A stretch of 36,412 nucleotides of DNA from Candidatus Gastranaerophilales bacterium (GTDB lineage Bacteria > Cyanobacteriota > Vampirovibrionia > Gastranaerophilales > Gastranaerophilaceae): positions 1 through 36,412 of the forward strand of contig CALUYC010000066.1 in NCBI GenBank assembly GCA_944324895.1, given 5' to 3'. Under the pieces are notes generated by a model. It ran no database searches. It was not told the DNA's origin and saw only the letters and a list, made by a program, of their open reading frames with translations. A program made the translations under genes and the position numbers. The stretch's first letter is position 1. Each line of letters starts with the position of its first letter. Of the stretch, positions 889 to 35,750 are shown one piece after another.

Positions 889-920
889 GATGACAAAATG
901 TGTTTTTTTGGTATTATAAT
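889..920 (+). promoter_or_regulatory. Sigma-70-type promoter candidate for the sigma-factor gene
   Basis: TGACAA (891..896), 18 nt spacer, TATAAT (915..920), 17 nt upstream of the ATG at 937. This argues against the ORF-track start at 898. Confidence 0.4.
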
Positions 921-936
921 TACTCTGGTAAGCAAG

Positions 937-1557
937 ATGGAAAACATAAAAAACAAAATTGAAAAGAACGTTAAACTAAGAAACTATCTTGACCTTATAA
1001 ACAAAATCGCCAAGGTAGAGTACAAGAGTGTATCTTCTCAACATTTAATTGAGTTTGACGAACTTGTAAACATCGGAATACAAACTGTTGATGTTCTTTG
1101 TTCCGATGAAAAAAAAGATTTATATAACGAGTCTTACCTCTCAACTGCAATAAAATGGGCGATAAGAAACGAATTAAGGCGACGATATCGCTGGCATGGT
1201 GTCAAACACAACCAAAAAGATATTGAAAATCAAACAAACGAAATAAGAGAGGCTATTTATAAAACAATTTTATCGACAGATGAAATGTTAGATAACGAAA
1301 AGCCCTTTGAAATAAAAGACATTAGGAAAAATCCCGAAGAATCTTGCGAATTTGAACAAATATCCGAAGCTATAAAAAAAGCAATATCAACCCTTCCGCA
1401 GAGAGAAAGAGAGCTTATAGAATCCAAATTCTTTCAAGAAAAGAAGCTTCATGAATTGTCAAACGAGTTTTCTATTTCTCCTTCAAGAATTTCAAGAATT
1501 ATTAAGTCAGGGTTGGATAAAATTAAAGACGAACTCATAAAAAACGAGGTTGTATAA
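937..1557 (+). CDS. Sigma-70 family RNA polymerase sigma factor (small, group 3/FliA-like)
   Basis: Region-2-like ESYLSTAIKWAIRNELRRRYRW and region-4 HTH LPQRERELIESKFFQEKKLHELSNEFSISPSRISRIIKSGLDKIK. Start moved to ATG 937 (MENIKNK) because the promoter candidate overlaps 898. Confidence 0.8.
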   Translation: MENIKNKIEKNVKLRNYLDLINKIAKVEYKSVSSQHLIEFDELVNIGIQTVDVLCSDEKKDLYNESYLSTAIKWAIRNELRRRYRWHGVKHNQKDIENQTNEIREAIYKTILSTDEMLDNEKPFEIKDIRKNPEESCEFEQISEAIKKAISTLPQRERELIESKFFQEKKLHELSNEFSISPSRISRIIKSGLDKIKDELIKNEVV

Positions 1558-1622: not shown

Positions 1623-4025
1623 TTACCACTCAACAATTATTTTTCCGGGCCCTCCTGAGCCGCCTCTAGAAGGTGCGGTTGTAGTTGTTGCGTTTATTAC
1701 GACTCCGCCACCTGAACCACCTGCACTGTTTGATAATGCACTGTTTCCGTCACCAAACTCAACGGAAAAACCGCCTGAACCATAGGTACTTGCAGCACCT
1801 GCGCCGCTAAGTGTACTTGTAGCATCATACCCGACATTTCCGTCGATACAGTCTAAATTGGTTAAATTACCAAATGCACATAGTGTCGGAGAAATTCCAC
1901 CAATACCATTAAGCACACTCCCATTTGAATACGAAGCATTCTTTCCGCCTAAACCGCCGCCGACTCTTAAATTAGCCTGACCGGAATAAGTTCCAAAAAT
2001 AGTATCCCCACCGCTTTGAGCAGCAACTTCAGGGCTTGAGCCCCAAGTAATATAACCGCCTGAGCCGCCTTTCCCTATTTGTACTCCTATTTTTGTATTG
2101 CCACCCGGAATGTTAACAAGTTTTTTTAAAGCCAAACCCGCAGAGCCGCCTCCACCGCGACCTATTTTGTCGGGGTTCCATGTTATTTTTACATAACCGC
2201 CTGCACCATTACCGCCTGCAACAGTTCCATATCCTCCTCCGCCACCACAGCCGCCATAACCTTGTGCATTGATATTTGCAGAACTTGTTAAGCTTGCACC
2301 TGTACCACCGCTGCAATAAGACTCGCCTTCAATTATAGTCTTTGCACCATTGCCGCCTCGCATGGTTTTCTGATAAGAGCTTGGTTTGTCTGTTGTTCCG
2401 CCAGCGTATTGTGCACCACCTGTATAAAAAACAGATTGCGAATATCCTAAAGATGATATATTAAAATTACCTTCAGAACTGCCGCCTTTAAAAATATAAC
2501 CGCTGTTTCCTGCATCACCCGAATATTTACCCCCGCATGCGCCATAACTGCAGTCATTTTGGTTATTAGTCATAACAATAATACTGGAACCGCGTTTTAA
2601 CATGGAAGGCTTGCCAAATTCGGCACTTTTGGGTTCGCTAAAGGCAAAAGCGGAAGATAGACTTGCAGAAGTTCCGCCCTTGCCGCCTTCGCCAACAATA
2701 ACGGTAATTTTTTCACCTGGCGTAACTTTATATCTTTGGCGCGGAACTATTGAACCGCTACCACCGCCACCGCCACCGTTTTGCGTTTCGTAATAAGTAA
2801 TTGCAACAAACCCCGGCGCACCATGGCCAACACAATTTGGACAATTACCGCCGCCACAACCTCCTGCACCGTAACCCTGACCATTTCTGACAGCACTTGA
2901 AGTTTTACTGTATTTACCAGCTTTGCCAAAAGTACTCGAGCCGCCACTACTACCTTCAACGGCGGGCGTATCAACACCACTTCTGCGAATACCATCTTGA
3001 CCGTTGCCACCACCAGGTTGTGCGCCCCTACCGCCGTTACAAATACTTTTCCACCCGCTTGTAAAATAAAAACTACCGGCACCTCCTAAACTGCAATGTG
3101 CGCCACCAGGATTAGCAGCGCCGGCTGATTCTCCATTTGTACCAACATCAGAACTGGTGCCCCAACATCCACCGCCGCCACCACCTGCACCGATTATTAT
3201 GTTATTGGATGAGTCTGCAATATAACTTGCTCCTCCGCCACACCCTGCAGCGCCATTACAAGAATGACCTTTTCCGCCCCTAGCCACTCTGATATTATAA
3301 TTACCTGTTTTATCAAACAAAACAGTTTGATGCCTTGCAGCACCACCACCACCTCCGGTACCAACCCAACCGCGACCGCCACCAGCGCCGCCGCCTGAGA
3401 TAGTTACCATTGCAGTTTTAGCAAATAAGTACTTAATATCATCAGCAGATAAAACAGCATCTGCGTTAGTGTACACAGAAGTTGTGGACACTCCTCTTTG
3501 CTCAAGGGTGGATGGCACATATGCCGTTGTGACATAAGTACGATTTAGTGTAGCTGAATGCGTCCAAGAAATAGCTTTTGGACTGGTACTGACATTTCCT
3601 GCACCACCGCCTGCACCGCCACCAACCAAAGTTGCCTCAATTTCATTAACACCATAAGGTACAATAAACTCGTAAGTGCCCGGAGTTTTATATTCGATAC
3701 TACCTGAAGTAGTGCCGCCACCACCTCCGCCGCCAGCTCCAACAACAGTAACATAAAGACTGTTTGTGCCGCTAGGAACCTGAAATTCTCCCTTACAACT
3801 GTTTGTAGTCTCATCAATGGTATTGCAGTTTGTACTACCATAGATTATTTCAGTAAAATGCTTGGGTGTATTGGCAACCTGAAACTGTTCAATTTTTCTT
3901 TGCGTAATAACAGGCGCTAAGACAACCAAAATTATAGAGCAAATCAAAATTGCAATAAGTAATTCTGCAAGCGTAAAAGCGCTCTTGGCCAGCTGCCAAG
4001 AAGATTTTTTCGTAATCTTAATCAT
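1623..4025 (-). CDS. Large glycine-run/Cys-rich repeat protein with an N-terminal prepilin-type (class III) signal peptide
   Basis: GGAG lies 6 nt before ATG 4025. N-terminus is MIKITKKSSWQLAKSA/FTLAELLIAILICSIILVVLAPV (F+1, E+5, hydrophobic helix). Repeated modules follow, such as VTVVGAGGGGGGG, LVGGGAGGGAG, IIIGAGGGGGGC and GGYVKITW. Confidence 0.85.
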   Translation of the reverse strand: MIKITKKSSWQLAKSAFTLAELLIAILICSIILVVLAPVITQRKIEQFQVANTPKHFTEIIYGSTNCNTIDETTNSCKGEFQVPSGTNSLYVTVVGAGGGGGGGTTSGSIEYKTPGTYEFIVPYGVNEIEATLVGGGAGGGAGNVSTSPKAISWTHSATLNRTYVTTAYVPSTLEQRGVSTTSVYTNADAVLSADDIKYLFAKTAMVTISGGGAGGGRGWVGTGGGGGAARHQTVLFDKTGNYNIRVARGGKGHSCNGAAGCGGGASYIADSSNNIIIGAGGGGGGCWGTSSDVGTNGESAGAANPGGAHCSLGGAGSFYFTSGWKSICNGGRGAQPGGGNGQDGIRRSGVDTPAVEGSSGGSSTFGKAGKYSKTSSAVRNGQGYGAGGCGGGNCPNCVGHGAPGFVAITYYETQNGGGGGGSGSIVPRQRYKVTPGEKITVIVGEGGKGGTSASLSSAFAFSEPKSAEFGKPSMLKRGSSIIVMTNNQNDCSYGACGGKYSGDAGNSGYIFKGGSSEGNFNISSLGYSQSVFYTGGAQYAGGTTDKPSSYQKTMRGGNGAKTIIEGESYCSGGTGASLTSSANINAQGYGGCGGGGGYGTVAGGNGAGGYVKITWNPDKIGRGGGGSAGLALKKLVNIPGGNTKIGVQIGKGGSGGYITWGSSPEVAAQSGGDTIFGTYSGQANLRVGGGLGGKNASYSNGSVLNGIGGISPTLCAFGNLTNLDCIDGNVGYDATSTLSGAGAASTYGSGGFSVEFGDGNSALSNSAGGSGGGVVINATTTTAPSRGGSGGPGKIIVEW

Positions 4026-4065
4026 ATATAACTCCAAATATTATTTAAAAAAATAATAAACTATT

Positions 4066-4107
4066 TACTGGATATTGTCCAGTACATTTATGTTGAAATT
4101 TCCAGTA
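4066..4107. promoter_or_regulatory. Operator candidate: perfect inverted repeat TACTGGA-N5-TCCAGTA plus a third TCCAGTA half-site
   Basis: Palindrome at 4066..4084 and extra half-site at 4101..4107, all within the 92-nt divergent intergenic region between the Gly-rich gene and the XRE gene. Confidence 0.5.
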
Positions 4108-4117
4108 GTCTTTTGTC

Positions 4118-4333
4118 ATGGACGAAGACATATTTTATCAAAAGTTAGGTACAAGAATAAAGCATTTAAGAGAAAAAGCAGGATTAACACAAGAAAAACT
4201 TGCCGAAAGGTCAGGAATCAGTCTTGATTATATGGGAAAAATTGAAGTAAACATAAATAAACCGGGCTTAAAAACAATTTTAAAACTGGCAAATGCGCTA
4301 AAAATAGAGCCCTACAAAATTTTTAAATTCTAA
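4118..4333 (+). CDS. XRE-family helix-turn-helix transcriptional regulator
   Basis: 71 aa; LGTRIKHLREKAGLTQEKLAERSGISLDYMGKIE is a canonical HTH_3 signature. Confidence 0.9.
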   Translation: MDEDIFYQKLGTRIKHLREKAGLTQEKLAERSGISLDYMGKIEVNINKPGLKTILKLANALKIEPYKIFKF

Positions 4334-4340
4334 ATAAAAA

Positions 4341-4363
4341 ACCCGCATAACGCGGGTTATTTT
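4341..4363 (+). terminator. Rho-independent terminator after the XRE gene
   Basis: ACCCGC ATAAC GCGGGT hairpin followed by TATTTT. Confidence 0.7.
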
Positions 4364-4452
4364 GGTGCCCTGGGCCAGACTTGAACTGGCACGAGGTTAT
4401 TAGCCCCATTGGATTTTAAGTCCAACGTGTCTACCGATTCCACCACCAGGGC
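4363..4452 (-). tRNA. tRNA-Leu (anticodon UAA), CCA encoded, long variable arm, no intron
   Basis: Reverse complement is GCCCTGGTGGTGGAATCGGTAGACACGTTGGACTTAAAATCCAATGGGGCTAATAACCTCGTGCCAGTTCAAGTCTGGCCCAGGGCACCA. Acceptor stem GCCCTGG/CCAGGGC; anticodon loop CTTAAAA. Confidence 0.9.
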
Positions 4453-5486: not shown

Positions 5487-6446
5487 TTAATTCCAATAAT
5501 GGTCATAAAGAATACCGCTTACTTCATCCTTGCCTCTGTCCATAAAGGATTTAGTGCTGCCGTATTTTTCATTATATAAAGCCTCTACGTCTGCTCTAAT
5601 GTCATCAGGCAAGCTCATAACATAAGCCAATACTTTTTCATCAGTTCCCCAGCCATCAACTGATTGTTTAAACAAGCTTACGCAGTTTCTTATATAAATT
5701 TGATAATCTGCGTTTGTTTTATCCATGTTTTGGTACCTTTCATATGATTCCAGTTGAGTACCTGATTCTTTAGATGTACCGCCAAGTTTTGCTAAAGCAT
5801 AGCCCTCAAGTATATCTTCAGTACCCCAAGAGGTTTCGCTTCTAATTAATTCAAATAAATCATATCCTTGTTCTTGAAGTTCAGCCTGAACTCCGCGCAT
5901 AACTTTTGGTGAAATACTATCGTTGCTTAAGATATTAATAAGAGCCTCTTCATCTGTGCCAAGTGAAAATGGACCAGTCTTGACTCTGACAGTTGCATCC
6001 AAAATATCTTGAACGGTTTCGTTAACAAGTACACGTTCTTCGTCAGTATATACAGCATCATCAGCATCGCCTGTCGGCTCTGCGCCTTCTGTACCTTCTG
6101 CGGCTTCTGTGCCTTCTGTACCTGTCAGATTAGTACCTTCTGTGCCTGCAAGGACAGAGTCGCCATTACCAGAAAGATATTCATTATTTTGACCAACGTT
6201 TTGACCATTTTGCAATTCTGCGTTTTCTTCTGCTGCTTGAGCAGCTCTTATCGCTTCAATATTTGCATTAAAATCATTAATTATAGAATCGTAAGCAGAA
6301 GAATAATTAACGGCAAATCCGCCAACGTTATTTTCGTATGCACCAAAAATACTTGAATCATCTTGAGTACTACTACTTGTCGGTGCAGAATACAAAGCTT
6401 CGTTCAAATAAGGGGTGAATGATGTAATGCCGTAATCGTAAGACAT
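5487..6446 (-). CDS. Annexin-repeat protein (two annexin/endonexin repeats) with an acidic low-complexity N-terminal half
   Basis: The two repeats are SLGTDEEALINILSNDSISPKVMRGVQAELQEQGYDLFELIRSETSWG and DGWGTDEKVLAYVMSLPDDIRADVEALYNEKYGSTKSFMDRGKDEVSG. Both fit the G-x-G-T-D-E ... Y..YG ... E.SG annexin pattern. Start at ATG 6446 with AGGAGA upstream. Confidence 0.75.
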   Translation of the reverse strand: MSYDYGITSFTPYLNEALYSAPTSSSTQDDSSIFGAYENNVGGFAVNYSSAYDSIINDFNANIEAIRAAQAAEENAELQNGQNVGQNNEYLSGNGDSVLAGTEGTNLTGTEGTEAAEGTEGAEPTGDADDAVYTDEERVLVNETVQDILDATVRVKTGPFSLGTDEEALINILSNDSISPKVMRGVQAELQEQGYDLFELIRSETSWGTEDILEGYALAKLGGTSKESGTQLESYERYQNMDKTNADYQIYIRNCVSLFKQSVDGWGTDEKVLAYVMSLPDDIRADVEALYNEKYGSTKSFMDRGKDEVSGILYDHYWN

Positions 6447-6576
6447 ATGCTCTCCTAATTTTTTCTCGTATATATAAATAAAAAAAATTCGATATAAAAA
6501 ATTGCCATAAAATATATACAATTTAGTGGAAATGGCTCAGGACAAGGTGTTTCAGTGTTAAGATTTGTAACAAAAA

Positions 6577-6621: not shown

Positions 6622-8127
6622 TTAGAAATTTTCACTACTACCGACTTGGAACAAATCTTCAAGGAATGTTCTGAATGCTAGATTTGTTTTATATTCACTT
6701 GTTTGCTTCATAGCCTCATATGCAGTTTTAAATTCTTGATAAGTAGCATTTGTTTTTCCTGTAAGTGTTCTTCTTATATCACCCGGGGACATATTTTTTG
6801 CTTGCATACCACTATTATACAATTCAACTACTTTTTGTTTTGCAGAATTAATAAATCCTTTTGCTTTGTCCGCGATAGCAGCAGATGTGTTGGCAGCATC
6901 GTCAGCGTTATTTGCGGCAGCGGTTACAGCATCGTCAGCATTGTTTGTAACAGCGTTAGCTGCATTTGCATTACCGGTACTTGCAGCAGCATTAGCAGCA
7001 TCGTCAGCGTTATTTGCGGCAGCGGTTACAGCTTCATCTGCGTTATTTGCAACGGCAGCAGCTACATTTGCATTACCGGATGCATTAGCTCGGTACGCAC
7101 CAATACCTGATGTTGCAGCACCGACAGTACCACCAACTAATGCACCACCAAATGCACCTGTTGCAGTAGAGCCTAACAAACCGCCGACATTAAATTCGTC
7201 ACCATCAAATACGGCATCTGCAGTATAATTTGTAGCCCCCATAACGCCACCACTTATAGCACCTGCTTTAGCACCAGCAATAGCACCTTGTTTTATAGTT
7301 TCGCCTATAAGAACCTTTCCGCCCTCTTTTGCAGCAACCATGCCAGCACTACCAATGCCAGCAGTAGCAGCAGTGACAACACCGCCAACAGCGCCTGTGA
7401 TAGTATCTTTTAAACCATCTTTAACTGAATAATCGCCTTGTACATTATTTGTTGCTTTGTCAGAAACCTTAATACCAACTTTAACAGCTGCACCAATTCC
7501 TGCTCCAAGTGCAAGACTGGCTCCAAAAGAGAAAGGAGCGGCAATAACTCCTGCAACAACGGCTAAGCCCGAGGCAACATTGGAGAATATTTCTACAAAT
7601 GAATCTTGTTTTTGTGAGTAATTATGTAATTTTTCTACAGCTTCCTGATATGATATTTCACCGTTTTCTGCTTGACTTAGCGCTTCTTCTACGGCATTAG
7701 AACCATTACCATGTCCAAAGAAATTTTTCACACCGTTCCAAGCTTTGCCAAGCCAGCCTTGTTCATTTTCTACTTGTTCATAAGCAGCACGTAGTTGCGC
7801 CATTTGTTCCTCTGTTGCAGTTGAATCAGATGTTTGTTCGGATGATTGTACATTATTATATAAATCATCAATGTTTGTACCTGCACCACCCGAAGATGTT
7901 TCCCCTTGAGTTGTACCATTGGCATCATTTGATGTTCCATTCGTACTTTCATCAGCACTATCAGAATAATTTTTCAAAATAGTGTCATATGAACCCGAAT
8001 AATTAACACTGCCAAATAACAGCTCATTTTCGGCAATGTTATTTATCTTGTTTTGGATAGCTTTATTAATATTCTCGGAATTTCTGTACATAGCAAAGCT
8101 ATCAGCGTAAATTGCGCTTGAACTCAT
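6622..8127 (-). CDS. Hypothetical protein with a Gly/Ala-rich glycine-zipper membrane core and an Asn/Ala/Asp repeat region
   Basis: 501 aa with no Sec signal. Hydrophobic hairpin VASGLAVVAGVIAAPFSFGASLALGAGIGAAV, then multiple GxxxG/AxxxG strings. NNADDA(A/V)... repeats follow. I recognise no family. Confidence 0.7.
   Translation of the reverse strand: MSSSAIYADSFAMYRNSENINKAIQNKINNIAENELLFGSVNYSGSYDTILKNYSDSADESTNGTSNDANGTTQGETSSGGAGTNIDDLYNNVQSSEQTSDSTATEEQMAQLRAAYEQVENEQGWLGKAWNGVKNFFGHGNGSNAVEEALSQAENGEISYQEAVEKLHNYSQKQDSFVEIFSNVASGLAVVAGVIAAPFSFGASLALGAGIGAAVKVGIKVSDKATNNVQGDYSVKDGLKDTITGAVGGVVTAATAGIGSAGMVAAKEGGKVLIGETIKQGAIAGAKAGAISGGVMGATNYTADAVFDGDEFNVGGLLGSTATGAFGGALVGGTVGAATSGIGAYRANASGNANVAAAVANNADEAVTAAANNADDAANAAASTGNANAANAVTNNADDAVTAAANNADDAANTSAAIADKAKGFINSAKQKVVELYNSGMQAKNMSPGDIRRTLTGKTNATYQEFKTAYEAMKQTSEYKTNLAFRTFLEDLFQVGSSENF
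6893..7096. repeat. In-frame tandem duplication (about 102 nt x 2) inside the 501-aa gene
   Basis: The 38-nt core GCAGCATCGTCAGCGTTATTTGCGGCAGCGGTTACAGC occurs identically at 6893..6930 and 6995..7032. Flanks are diverged copies. Confidence 0.85.
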
Positions 8128-8248: not shown

Positions 8249-9112
8249 TTGTTAAGAAAATTTAACAAACGTGCAATTTTTACATGTAATTTTTTTTTAT
8301 TAATACATAAGATAGTGTGTGGTATAGAAGTAGTGAAAACAGATAGAATTTTTGGCGCGCTTAATTTTAGCTCAAACGCCGCCATAAAAACTAATCCTAA
8401 AAAATATATATGGAATTACACAAGCAAGGACACATATTCAAGTCAGTATCCAAAGCTAAACCCTGCTTTGCAAAACCCCATATATAGAATTAATGATTCA
8501 TATCTTGCAAAAATTTCGCCCGCTATGTTCATACAAAAGTATTCAAATGCACAAATTTTAAATAGCGCCGCACAAACTAACCCAAATATAAGAGATATTA
8601 TCGGCACAGGATATAATTCCGTTAAAATATACCCGCAAAACTCAAGCAGTGCTATTAATCCACATTTCATACCTACTGAACAAGCTGCGATAAAAATTAT
8701 GCAAAAATGCGGTGAAAAATTTAGCCCACAAGATTATAACAGCGTAAGGCAAGCGGCGCTTTTACACGACGTAGGAAAAGCATATATTCCATATGAAATT
8801 TTAAATAAAAAAGGAAAATTAACACCACAAGAAAAAGAAATTGTAGACAAGCACGCACGATTAAGCTACGAAGTGCTTAAAACAGCCGGGGTAGATGGAG
8901 CAGTGTTAAATCTTGTTCGTAATCATCATACTTATTCAAAAAACAATCCTCCTACGGTTCAAATCCTACAAATTGCAGACATATGGAGTGCGCTAAAAGA
9001 AAAAAGATCATATAAAGAAGCATACAGTAATGATAAGGCTCTAGGAATATTATACGAGCGTGCGCAAAACGGTGATTTTGACAAAAAATATATTGACGCA
9101 CTTGCAGCATAA
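8249..9112 (+). CDS. HD-domain protein (HD-GYP-like, GYP motif absent); start uncertain
   Basis: AALLHDVGKAYIPYEILNKKGKLTPQEKEIVDKHARLSYEVL...VRNHH matches the HD/HD-GYP metal-binding layout. The track start is TTG 8249 and the first in-frame ATG is 8525. Confidence 0.6.
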   Translation: MLRKFNKRAIFTCNFFLLIHKIVCGIEVVKTDRIFGALNFSSNAAIKTNPKKYIWNYTSKDTYSSQYPKLNPALQNPIYRINDSYLAKISPAMFIQKYSNAQILNSAAQTNPNIRDIIGTGYNSVKIYPQNSSSAINPHFIPTEQAAIKIMQKCGEKFSPQDYNSVRQAALLHDVGKAYIPYEILNKKGKLTPQEKEIVDKHARLSYEVLKTAGVDGAVLNLVRNHHTYSKNNPPTVQILQIADIWSALKEKRSYKEAYSNDKALGILYERAQNGDFDKKYIDALAA

Positions 9113-33433: not shown

Positions 33434-35179
33434 ATGATAAAGCCCAAAAAAGCAGTTGAGGGTATTTTACCTTACTCAACACCAAAATACGCACAAATAT
33501 GTAATTTAAAGTTGGATTCAAATGAAAATCCATACGGTGCTTCAAAAGAAGTTTTATATGCACTAAAAGAACTCACAAATGCTCAGATAAGCAGATATCC
33601 TCACTATGGTGAGCTTGTTGATAAATTGGCGCAAAAATTTAACTTAAAAGATGACGAAATTTTACCCACAAACGGAGCTGATGAGGCATTAAGCGTAATA
33701 ATTAACACATATTTAGACACAGATGAAGAACTTTTATGTTTTATGCCAACATTTTCTATGCCTAAATTATACGCAACAAGCTGCCATGGCAAATTTCGCT
33801 CTATAGATTATTATACAAAATGGGTTTTTGACGCAGATAAGTTAATAGAAAATATAGACGCTAAAACAAAAATTATATACATAACAAGCCCGAATAATCC
33901 AACAGGAGAGCTGGCAAATATTCAAGATATAGAAAAAATACTCTCAAATTTTCCACAAATTATTGTTTTGCTTGATGTAACATATATCAACTTTGCACAA
34001 AATCCTCCGGATTATTATAGTCTTATCAAAAAATATGAAAATATTTTTATTGTAAAATCTTTTTCAAAAGATATGGGGCTTGCAGGCTTAAGACTTGGAT
34101 GTGCTCTTAGTCAAAGTCAAAACATCGAACAGTGTAAAAAAATAATTTCACCATATTCCGTAAATGCCGCAGCGCTATACGCGGGACTTGCAACACTTGA
34201 TGATGTCGAGTGGGAAAAGTTTATAAAAGAACAAATAAACACATCGCGCAATGCGCTTATAGAAGGCCTAATTGAACTTGGTTTTAAACCATACAAAAGC
34301 CAAGGGAACTTTATCCTTTGCGATTTTAATCAATACTGCGACTTTATTGAGTGGAAATTACAATCAAAAGGCATTAAAGTAAGAAGCTTTAAAACATCAG
34401 ATATATTAAAAAATTGCCTAAGAATAACAACCCCTAAAGTACAAGATTTGAATTTATTTTTTGACGCTCTAATAACTAAAGACATGCTGGTATTTGACCT
34501 TGACGGGGTTGTGTTTGATGTATCAAACTCATACAGGCTGGCAATAAAAGAAACATTTAAGCACTTTTCACAAAAAGAGTTGCAAGATGATGAAATACAA
34601 AAAGCAAAAGAGCTTGGCGGACTTAATTGCGATTGGGATTTAACAAAATATTTGCTAGATAAACATGGATTTAATGTTGAATTAGAAAAAGTAATCGAGG
34701 TTTTTCAAAAAATGTTTTTCGACCCGCAAAAAGAAGGTTCAAAGGGAATAATAGATAATGAAAAACTTGTAGTTTCCCCCGAAACATTCGAAAAATTGTC
34801 TGAAAAATACGACTTTTGCGCATTTACAGGCAGACCAAGATCAGAAGCCATATATTCGCTTGAAAAATTTGGAATATTAAAATATTTTTGCAAAATAATT
34901 TCTCAGGATGATATACAAAAAAACGAGAGAAAGCCTCATCCTGAAGGGTTAAACAGAATTAAAAGAGAAACAATATATAATAAAATTTATTATTTCGGCG
35001 ATACCGTTGACGACATATATTCTGCGGTTGCAAGCACAACACAAGTATACGGAGTTGCCAAAAAAAGCTCCAAAAGTGCTTTAATTCTCACAGAAGCCGG
35101 TGCACAAGACATTATAGAAGATATGTCAAAATTAGATGAATTTTTAAAAGCAAAGGAAAACACATATGCAAATAGTTGA
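33434..35179 (+). CDS. hisC: Histidinol-phosphate aminotransferase fused to a C-terminal HAD-superfamily phosphatase domain
   Basis: HisC motifs are LDSNENPYG, NGADEAL, SPNNPTG and KSFSKDMGLAGLRLG. From residue 351 the HAD motifs are FDLDGVV (I), FTGR (II), RKPHP (III) and FGDTVDD (IV). One uninterrupted frame. Confidence 0.85.
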   Translation: MIKPKKAVEGILPYSTPKYAQICNLKLDSNENPYGASKEVLYALKELTNAQISRYPHYGELVDKLAQKFNLKDDEILPTNGADEALSVIINTYLDTDEELLCFMPTFSMPKLYATSCHGKFRSIDYYTKWVFDADKLIENIDAKTKIIYITSPNNPTGELANIQDIEKILSNFPQIIVLLDVTYINFAQNPPDYYSLIKKYENIFIVKSFSKDMGLAGLRLGCALSQSQNIEQCKKIISPYSVNAAALYAGLATLDDVEWEKFIKEQINTSRNALIEGLIELGFKPYKSQGNFILCDFNQYCDFIEWKLQSKGIKVRSFKTSDILKNCLRITTPKVQDLNLFFDALITKDMLVFDLDGVVFDVSNSYRLAIKETFKHFSQKELQDDEIQKAKELGGLNCDWDLTKYLLDKHGFNVELEKVIEVFQKMFFDPQKEGSKGIIDNEKLVVSPETFEKLSEKYDFCAFTGRPRSEAIYSLEKFGILKYFCKIISQDDIQKNERKPHPEGLNRIKRETIYNKIYYFGDTVDDIYSAVASTTQVYGVAKKSSKSALILTEAGAQDIIEDMSKLDEFLKAKENTYANS

Positions 35180-35750
35180 AAAAACAAGAAATACAGCAGA
35201 AACGCAAATTTCAATAACACTTAACCCTACAGGTAGCGGAAATTACGAAATTTGTACACCTGTAAACTTTTTTAGTCACATGCTTGAACTATTATGCGTA
35301 CATGCCATGTTCGATTTAAAAGTAGAGGCTAAATCATTAGACGGTGATCCGCACCATTTGGTTGAAGATGTTGCAATCGCCCTTGGGGAAGCTATTAAAG
35401 ACGCGCTTGGAGATAAAAAGGGTATCAACAGATATGCAAGTATGATTTTACCAATGGATGAAGCGTTGATATTGTGCGCACTTGATGTTTCGGGCAGGTC
35501 GTTTTGCAATATTGAAGTTAATATAAAAGAAGAAAAAACCTCGGACTTTGAAACTGTACTTTTGGCGCATTTTTTCCAAAGCCTTTCTGCAAATTCGGGA
35601 ATAACATTGCATATTAAACAGCTTGCCGGAATTGACCCGCATCATATAATTGAGTGCACATTTAAAGCATTTGCAAGGGCAATAAAAATAGCAATAGCAA
35701 CAGATACAAGCAATCCGGATAAAATCCCTTCAACAAAAGGTGTACTTTAA
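35166..35750 (+). CDS. hisB: Imidazoleglycerol-phosphate dehydratase (monofunctional)
   Basis: RNTAETQISI, DPHHLVEDVAIALG and DPHHIIECTFKAFARA motifs. 14-nt overlap with the upstream gene. Confidence 0.93.
   Translation: MQIVEKTRNTAETQISITLNPTGSGNYEICTPVNFFSHMLELLCVHAMFDLKVEAKSLDGDPHHLVEDVAIALGEAIKDALGDKKGINRYASMILPMDEALILCALDVSGRSFCNIEVNIKEEKTSDFETVLLAHFFQSLSANSGITLHIKQLAGIDPHHIIECTFKAFARAIKIAIATDTSNPDKIPSTKGVL

Follow-up and report, generated by a model that had tools for sequence, protein, structure and literature searches.

The window analysed here, 36,412 nucleotides of contig CALUYC010000066.1 from a Candidatus Gastranaerophilales bacterium (assembly GCA_944324895.1), encodes on its reverse strand an 800-amino-acid (aa) glycine-rich protein with a prepilin-type N-terminus and, divergently from it, a small regulator of the XRE family. 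The N-terminal signal is conserved throughout a family of paralogues, the body of the protein is predicted to consist of three tandem domains of a kind known from phage fibres, and the gene together with its regulator is, by its recurrence at homologous loci, a conserved two-gene unit, which, like the lineage-specific family with its many copies per genome, had gone unseen in the sequence-only reading of this stretch. The unit comprises the following features (coordinates are those of the window, residues those of the 800-aa product).

1623..4025, reverse strand: coding sequence of the glycine-rich protein (800 aa) and its prepilin-type signal (open reading frame (ORF) list, translation), with the stop codon at 1623–1625.
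3978..4025, reverse strand: putative leader peptide, residues 1–16 (MIKITKKSSWQLAKSA), short and basic, with Ala at −1 (family N-termini).
3891..3977, reverse strand: predicted mature N-terminus, residues 17–45, with F+1, E+5, S+14, P+22 and a hydrophobic α1N-like helix, followed by ITQRK.
3591..3863, reverse strand: conserved N-terminal module, residues 55–145, with two “start units” in which a strand runs into a glycine run, and with Cys67/Cys77.
2790..3686, reverse strand: Gly_rich_2 domain 1, residues 114–412, with a hypervariable insert at about 146–205 (Pfam on pieces).
2178..2780, reverse strand: Gly_rich_2 domain 2, residues 416–616, the best Pfam stretch (profile positions 34–225 of 226).
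1626..2162, reverse strand: Gly_rich_2 domain 3, residues 622–800, with conserved Cys716/Cys726 (Pfam on pieces; PHROG 863).
4032..4035, reverse strand: ribosome-binding site GGAG (CTCC on the forward strand), 6 nt before the ATG, kept in the orthologous loci L004 and L005.
4053..4081, reverse strand: promoter-like site TGGACA-17 nt-TATTAT (consensus scan, 10/12, a consensus match only), with TATTAT kept in L004 and L005.
4066..4084, no strand assigned: palindrome TACTGGA-TATTG-TCCAGTA, a candidate operator over the −35 element, with arms kept in L004.
4101..4107, no strand assigned: third TCCAGTA half-site beside the start of the regulator gene, in the conserved alignment block GACTACTGGAAA.
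4118..4333, forward strand: partner gene, a 71-aa XRE-family helix-turn-helix (HTH) regulator (Pfam HTH_3, E = 2e-13).

The coding sequence lies in an enclosing ORF, 1623..4037 on the reverse strand, in which the ATG at 4025 yields 800 aa; the GGAG with its 6-nt spacer bears out this start, already chosen in the sequence-only reading. All strings quoted there are found at the expected residues of the product, the approximate count of 17 cysteines is exact, and the four long alternative-frame ORFs are present as four frames of at least 60 aa inside the gene. Glycine makes up 184 of the 800 residues (23%). The GC content of the gene is 46.3%, compared with 35% for the window, and falls to 36.4% when the 184 glycine codons are removed, in agreement with the earlier attribution of this GC-rich island to GGN codons; GC content at third codon positions (GC3) is 0.30, and 0.25 in infB. 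Since the glycine codons supply all the excess GC and GC3 is native, the island is an effect of codon composition and the gene looks native, which rules out horizontal transfer as the source of the island.

In the translation, the leader and the mature part meet at MIKITKKSSWQLAKSA/FTLAELLIAILICSIILVVLAPVITQRK. Across 164 distinct N-termini of the family, position −1 is occupied by Ala (138) or Gly (26) and by nothing else, and F+1, L+3, E+5, S+14, P+22, and T+25 are 100% conserved. The elements of a class III signal are all present, that is, a basic leader, Ala or Gly at −1, Phe at +1, Glu at +5, some 20 hydrophobic residues, and Pro at about +22. In type IV pilins, an invariant Glu within the hydrophobic helix combined with Pro22 is the signature of α1N, unlike a plain membrane anchor. 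The motif A/FTLAELL is the sole prepilin-like one in the six-frame translation of the window. The N_methyl domain (PF07963) matches 36 of 45 family members at E ≤ 0.01 (best E = 4.5e-6), several members carry a precomputed PF07963 call, and the weak NCBIfam matches of the window protein, at residues 10–60, are all to pilins or pseudopilins. When the family profile was compared with the PDB, the sole hit, a weak one, was the N-terminal helix of the mature PilA of Thermus (6xxd, E = 0.033), F17 being aligned to its F1. In the AlphaFold2 model, residues 19–45 form a lone helix that is followed by a low-confidence flexible linker (45–52). As the pattern is invariant over 164 N-termini, the motif is not accidental despite the sub-cut-off profile scores of the window protein itself (see below). 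Judged by this conservation, the N-terminus is a class III signal under strong family-wide constraint and not a chance resemblance, and the proposal of a prepilin N-terminus with Ala at −1, made in the sequence-only reading, holds.

The body of the protein is of a different kind. The whole window protein matches Pfam PF21722 (Gly_rich_2) with 89.2 bits (gathering cut-off 24.3), and four pieces of it each exceed the cut-off alone, resolving three domains, with a further partial “start unit” near residues 80–113; Gly_rich_2 also matches 44 of the 45 family members. Residues 622–800 are covered by a match to PHROG 863, assigned to the tail category. In the family alignment, columns close to invariance almost always hold glycine, and column conservation is lowest at the hypervariable segment of approximately residues 146–205. 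The Cys pairs 67/77, 571/593, and 716/726 are kept in about 76–87% of members, which is consistent with a location outside the cytoplasm.

The full-length AlphaFold2 model, built from 71 sequences (pLDDT 87.9, pTM 0.74), shows past the linker a body of β-strands and extended glycine segments, the glycine runs being neither helix nor strand according to DSSP. A single-sequence search of the PDB with the window protein gave no match; the best PDB matches of the model are the Bxb1 tail tip (9d93_Qa/Qb), the Pam3 fibre protein gp24 (7ypx_A, TM 0.53 relative to the target), and the glycine-rich domains of ALK and LTK. Domain 3 modelled alone (pLDDT 88, pTM 0.84; best PDB match the Bxb1 tail tip 9d93_Qb, TMq 0.47) gave no better match scores than the full-length model. 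Among predicted viral structures, 106 match at E < 1e-3, most of them tail-fibre, minor-tail, or “glycine-rich domain” proteins. [quoted passage not shown] According to the profile matches and the model, the body is predicted to be three tandem Gly_rich_2 domains, each combining a TNF-like β-sandwich with a polyglycine lattice.

These data agree with the earlier suggestion of a non-pilin, adhesin-like body akin to phage-fibre glycine-rich domains, given the Gly_rich_2 domains, the Bxb1, Pam3, and other viral matches, and PHROG 863. The β-solenoid-like fold suggested for the body has to be abandoned: the AlphaFold and Foldseek check returned phage polyglycine and ALK-type matches instead, and such a fold is rejected on the confident model together with the Pfam domains. 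Thus, the interpretation given in the sequence-only reading stands for the prepilin N-terminus, the phage-fibre-like body, and the lack of nearby pilus genes, and falls for the fold.

A search of 5.8 billion proteins yielded 140 relatives of 760–1110 aa, to which a scan of one genome per species added 185 loci, and every named locus of the family belongs to a Gastranaerophilales/Melainabacteria assembly. From 1.84 billion representatives, an exhaustive HMMER search retrieved no more than 180 clusters at E ≤ 1e-3, and the majority of these match query residues 13–148 only, i.e., the conserved N-terminal module; no relatives were found in 2.9 million viral contigs (IMG/VR). Among the 80 loci kept, single assemblies carry at least 9–11 copies. 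Contig ends cut 36 of 82 copies, as happens with repeated sequence in short-read assemblies, and 17 of these breaks are 356–386 residues past the predicted cleavage site; the size of the family is therefore probably underestimated in current metagenome-assembled genomes.

Paralogues within a genome are 74–96% identical in the first 50 mature residues, 57–96% in residues 55–145, 19–35% at approximately 150–400, and 40–78% beyond. When the window is compared with its syntenic orthologue (L004), identity of the glycine-rich protein is no higher than 55%, against 84–99% for most flanking genes. The hypervariable middle and the rapid divergence suggest exposure to the outside world. Lcl, noted for family members in alignment A4, is an adhesin, which would again point to an adhesive role of some paralogues. 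Phase variation via repeats or an invertible promoter was considered and rejected, as just short repeats of GGN codons and weak AT-rich inverted repeats were seen, with no recombinase. Neither part of the protein is of a new kind, and precomputed annotations already show N_methyl together with Gly_rich_2; the literature on PF21722 and on Gastranaerophilales in connection with pilins or adhesins yielded no account of the family, of its copy number, of its conserved/hypervariable/conserved layout, or of its arrangement with an adjacent regulator.

A 92-bp spacer separates the regulator gene from the divergent glycine-rich gene. The regulator and its orthologue share 89% identity, compared with 55% for the glycine-rich protein, and the same divergent arrangement recurs at homologues that are 40%, 55%, and 27% identical. 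An XRE gene is upstream and divergent in 49 of 86 family genes, these neighbours accounting for 49 of the 63 XRE hits of all loci; most other copies have in its place an RHH/CopG, MerR, HTH_3+Peptidase_S24 (CI/LexA-like), or Cro/C1-like gene, so that about 80% of copies have a divergent small DNA-binding gene upstream. At the orthologous locus, the spacer is of equal length, and the palindrome arms, the third half-site, TATTAT, and GGAG are all kept. The XRE regulator probably controls the glycine-rich gene via TACTGGA-N5-TCCAGTA over the promoter. Other paralogues have different intergenic palindromes, which rules out one operator common to all copies and hints at a match of regulator and operator particular to each copy.

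Several observations concern the surroundings of the unit. A tRNA-Leu(taa) gene (4363–4452, reverse strand) is directly beside the regulator gene, with a terminator-like hairpin at 4340–4358 in between; a tRNA-linked island was rejected as a general rule, just three of 86 family genes adjoining a tRNA gene. A weak AT-rich inverted repeat (1548–1572 and 4320–4344, 72% complementary) flanks the two genes. The interval between the zf_Tbcl and dCMP deaminase genes holds a regulator and a family gene at one locus (L086, 9090–12862), and an endonuclease-IV-like gene with an FRG-domain gene in a related genome (L089, 1–2830); since different cargo occurs between the same backbone genes, the two-gene unit behaves like replaceable accessory cargo. 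A GC-rich, REP-like palindrome, ACCCTGAAC-N3-GTTCAGGGT, is found upstream of family genes in L026, L049, L058, L063, and others, and may explain the spurious “...HPELVSGS...” N-terminal extensions of some database proteins.

Taking all this into account, we lean towards the view that the protein is a variable adhesin, controlled by its regulator as a repressor, that a prepilin peptidase processes and a type IV filament displays or anchors. The protein would insert in the inner membrane with its N-terminus inside, and the genome's prepilin peptidase would cut after Ala16 and methylate Phe17. The helix with E+5 would then allow the type IV filament machinery to take the protein up as a subunit of low abundance, located probably at the tip. 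The glycine-rich domains would be exposed, their glycine stems bearing the hypervariable loops and acting as a ligand- or surface-binding adhesin, and the divergent XRE regulator would bind the conserved palindrome over the promoter, governing expression. By analogy, the protein may work like a modular pilin.

A number of observations weigh against this view. The scores of the window protein are under the curated cut-offs for both N-terminal profiles (PF07963, 17.2 bits vs. 21.2; TIGR02532, 13.9 vs. 16.3), and the HMMER check against Pfam and TIGRFAM proposed with the sequence-only reading succeeded for Gly_rich_2 and failed for PF07963 and TIGR02532. In the globular pilin module, a long α1 of about 50 residues has its C-terminal half packed against an antiparallel β-sheet. 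In the model, the helix has about 27 residues, and α1C packed on a β-sheet is not seen; because this module is absent, the protein lacks one structural hallmark of a pilin. The PDB matches of the body are modest (E ~5e-3, TM 0.3–0.5), though the Foldseek probability is about 1. The ORF list and domain searches show no pilus genes in the window, so that “no pilus machinery nearby,” as the sequence-only reading put it, is correct across all 36 kb; nor was a prepilin peptidase gene found in the 36 kb of this genome examined, and a motif scan of approximately 1.1 Mb of family loci revealed no PilD, PilB, PilC, or secretin. In these loci, a lone pilT was the sole pilus gene seen, at a distance of about 10 kb from family genes and in two genomes; it encodes a 369-aa T2SSE-family ATPase, close relatives of which go by the name PilT in Gastranaerophilales records, and it is solitary, adjoining the L33-SecE-NusG-L11-L1 genes. 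Finally, the 80-kDa body would need a route across the outer membrane. On the side of the filament view, PilT-type ATPase genes and family genes occur in the same genomes, and one Gastranaerophilales genome has been reported to encode pilA, pilB, pilC, pilT, and pilD (PMC5877343).

Several of these points also fit the main rival explanation, in which the class III signal serves processing and anchoring or export only, without polymerisation into a pilus, so that the protein is either tethered in the inner membrane with a periplasmic body, or released or assembled on the surface via a route resembling type II secretion. A parallel would be found in archaea, where the sugar-binding proteins of the “bindosome” have class III signal peptides. 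The lack of a pilin globular domain in the model, the dispersal of the family genes away from pilus operons, the absence of a secretin from every family locus retrieved, and the partial pilus gene sets reported for Gastranaerophilales (PMC5877343) are all in line with it. On the other hand, E+5 and P22, which in type IV pilins matter for filament assembly beyond cleavage, are invariant, the hypervariable central domains and the rapid divergence suggest exposure outside the cell, and the domains are of the phage receptor-binding type. We regard such a non-polymerised protein as a serious though rather unlikely alternative to the filament-displayed adhesin.

The same low PF07963 and TIGR02532 scores, the Ala at −1 where Gly is canonical, and the absence of pilus genes nearby might also indicate an ordinary uncleaved signal-anchor, its likeness to prepilins being incidental and the membrane-anchored glycine-rich protein unrelated to type IV filaments. 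That is improbable given 164 N-termini with only Ala or Gly at −1 and invariant F+1, L+3, E+5, and P+22, the pilin pattern of a conserved Glu within the hydrophobic helix, the N_methyl matches in 36 of 45 members, and the weak NCBIfam matches, all of them to pilins or pseudopilins. Least probable of all, in our estimate very much so, is a receptor-binding protein of a phage tail fibre or tailocin that has been domesticated or survives as a remnant in a small tRNA-adjacent mobile island. It is true that the nearest structures and profile matches are phage tail proteins, that the partner is a phage-repressor-like (XRE/CI-type) regulator, replaced at some paralogues by HTH_3+Peptidase_S24, that tRNA-Leu is beside the unit, and that two related genomes carry different cargo at one backbone position. 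However, no other phage genes were found in the window or at homologous loci, the neighbours being housekeeping genes in conserved order and not a phage structural module; the 2.9 million viral contigs hold no relative, GC3 is native, and the protein begins with no fibre-docking domain but with a membrane helix of pilin type. A prophage or tailocin origin was rejected due to the absence of nearby phage genes and of IMG/VR relatives.

Beyond the single protein, a more far-reaching possibility, which we consider tentative and on the whole doubtful, is a programmed repertoire of variable adhesins: at least 10 complete genes per ~2 Mb genome would share a common pilin-type anchor, recombination at the conserved 5′ and 3′ blocks would swap the central phage-type receptor-binding domain, and most genes would be switched by a repressor at its operator. 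If so, the repertoire would place different binding specificities on one type IV filament, singly or in combinations. To our knowledge, regulator-gated adhesin or antigenic variation of this kind has been described neither in type IV pili nor in the cyanobacterial lineage. The small regulator beside most copies leads to a testable model of choice among alternative adhesins.

Gastranaerophilales are uncultured gut bacteria, non-photosynthetic relatives of cyanobacteria that are common in human and animal guts. As the family takes up a sizeable share of a small genome, evolves much more rapidly than most neighbouring genes, and combines a pilus-type anchor with phage-type receptor-binding domains, it is a concrete candidate for the interface by which they contact hosts, mucus, and other microbes. 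It also extends the polyglycine-rich receptor-binding domain from phage fibres and the animal ALK/LTK to cellular proteins with a pilin signal, and adds to the modular pilin concept a case without any globular pilin module.

Some other genes of the window deserve mention. The convergent neighbour of the glycine-rich gene (898–1557, forward strand) encodes a 219-aa sigma-factor-like protein, of which only region 4 is recognised, and is also kept at the orthologous locus; a ribosomal protein L10 leader RNA (RF00557, 69.6 bits) precedes rplJ at 639–774 on the reverse strand. A 344-aa protein (5487–6521, reverse strand) matches the Annexin repeat with 26.7 bits (Pfam cut-off 25) and contains GWGTDE-like motifs; annexins are uncommon in bacteria. 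It adjoins the gene of a 501-aa Ala/Gly/Asn-rich protein (6622–8127, reverse strand), and in local BLASTP alignments over about 190 of 344 and 325 of 501 residues, respectively, the two products share only 64–70% identity with their orthologues, in a block in which most genes reach 84–99%. The other fast-evolving gene of the block, 8249–9112 on the forward strand, encodes an HD-domain protein only 49% identical to its syntenic orthologue. A 581-aa ORF (33434–35179, forward strand), just upstream of a hisB-like gene (35166–35750), looks from inspection of its translation like two halves fused together, the N-terminal one histidinol-phosphate aminotransferase-like and the C-terminal one HAD-phosphatase-like.

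The combination of features described here may be compared with several known systems. In Planctomycetes, Verrucomicrobia, and Lentisphaerae, there are large paralogous families with prepilin-type N-termini (e.g., DUF1559/HX9DG), and archaea have binding proteins with class III signal peptides. As in the present family, many non-pilin bodies per genome share one signal type, with no linkage to pilus operons; what differs is the lineage and the domains of the body, and we know of no description of a paired regulator for either group.

The PilV shufflon adhesins of IncI thin pili (R64, TP114) vary by site-specific DNA inversion within one gene. Here, the variation resides in many complete paralogues, most with an adjacent regulator, and neither a recombinase nor inverted cassettes were seen. 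The likeness is that PilV, a minor pilin, keeps its N-terminal part constant and has alternative C-terminal parts, which alter the binding specificity (PMC9045228).

Both the glycine-rich (TG/GRD) domain of ALK/LTK and the phage polyglycine proteins resemble the predicted body. The former combines a TNF-like β-sandwich with a polyglycine lattice, as is predicted for the body, and 7NX3, 7N00, 7LS0, and 7NX1 are among the top PDB matches; however, ALK and LTK belong to the receptor tyrosine kinases of animals and have a cytokine as ligand, the structural match to them is weak (TM 0.2–0.3 over the whole chain), and there is no detectable sequence relationship. The phage proteins, namely Pam3 gp24 (7YPX), Bxb1 Qa/Qb (9D93), and gp38 of Salmonella phage S16, belong to the same Gly_rich_2 family and include the best structural matches, gp24 sharing in addition the layout of conserved glycine stems and variable loops. 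In contrast to them, the gene studied here is cellular, with no phage context and no relatives on viral contigs, its product has three tandem domains and not one, and a pilin-type membrane helix replaces the fibre-docking N-terminus.

Modular pilins with adhesion modules are widespread, comprising more than 1,200 proteins in 264 architectures (PMC8179133). In PilB and PilC of Streptococcus sanguinis, CofB of enterotoxigenic Escherichia coli (ETEC), TcpB of Vibrio, GspK of the type II secretion system (T2SS), and ComZ of Thermus, a class III signal and α1N bear a bulky non-pilin ligand-binding module, much as in the present protein, and they are expected to be low-abundance or tip-located subunits. 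The present protein differs from them in that the globular pilin module is not seen in the model between the helix and the cargo, in that the cargo consists of three polyglycine-rich domains, and in that its genes, at least 9–11 copies per genome and most of them with an adjacent regulator, are unlinked to pilus operons.

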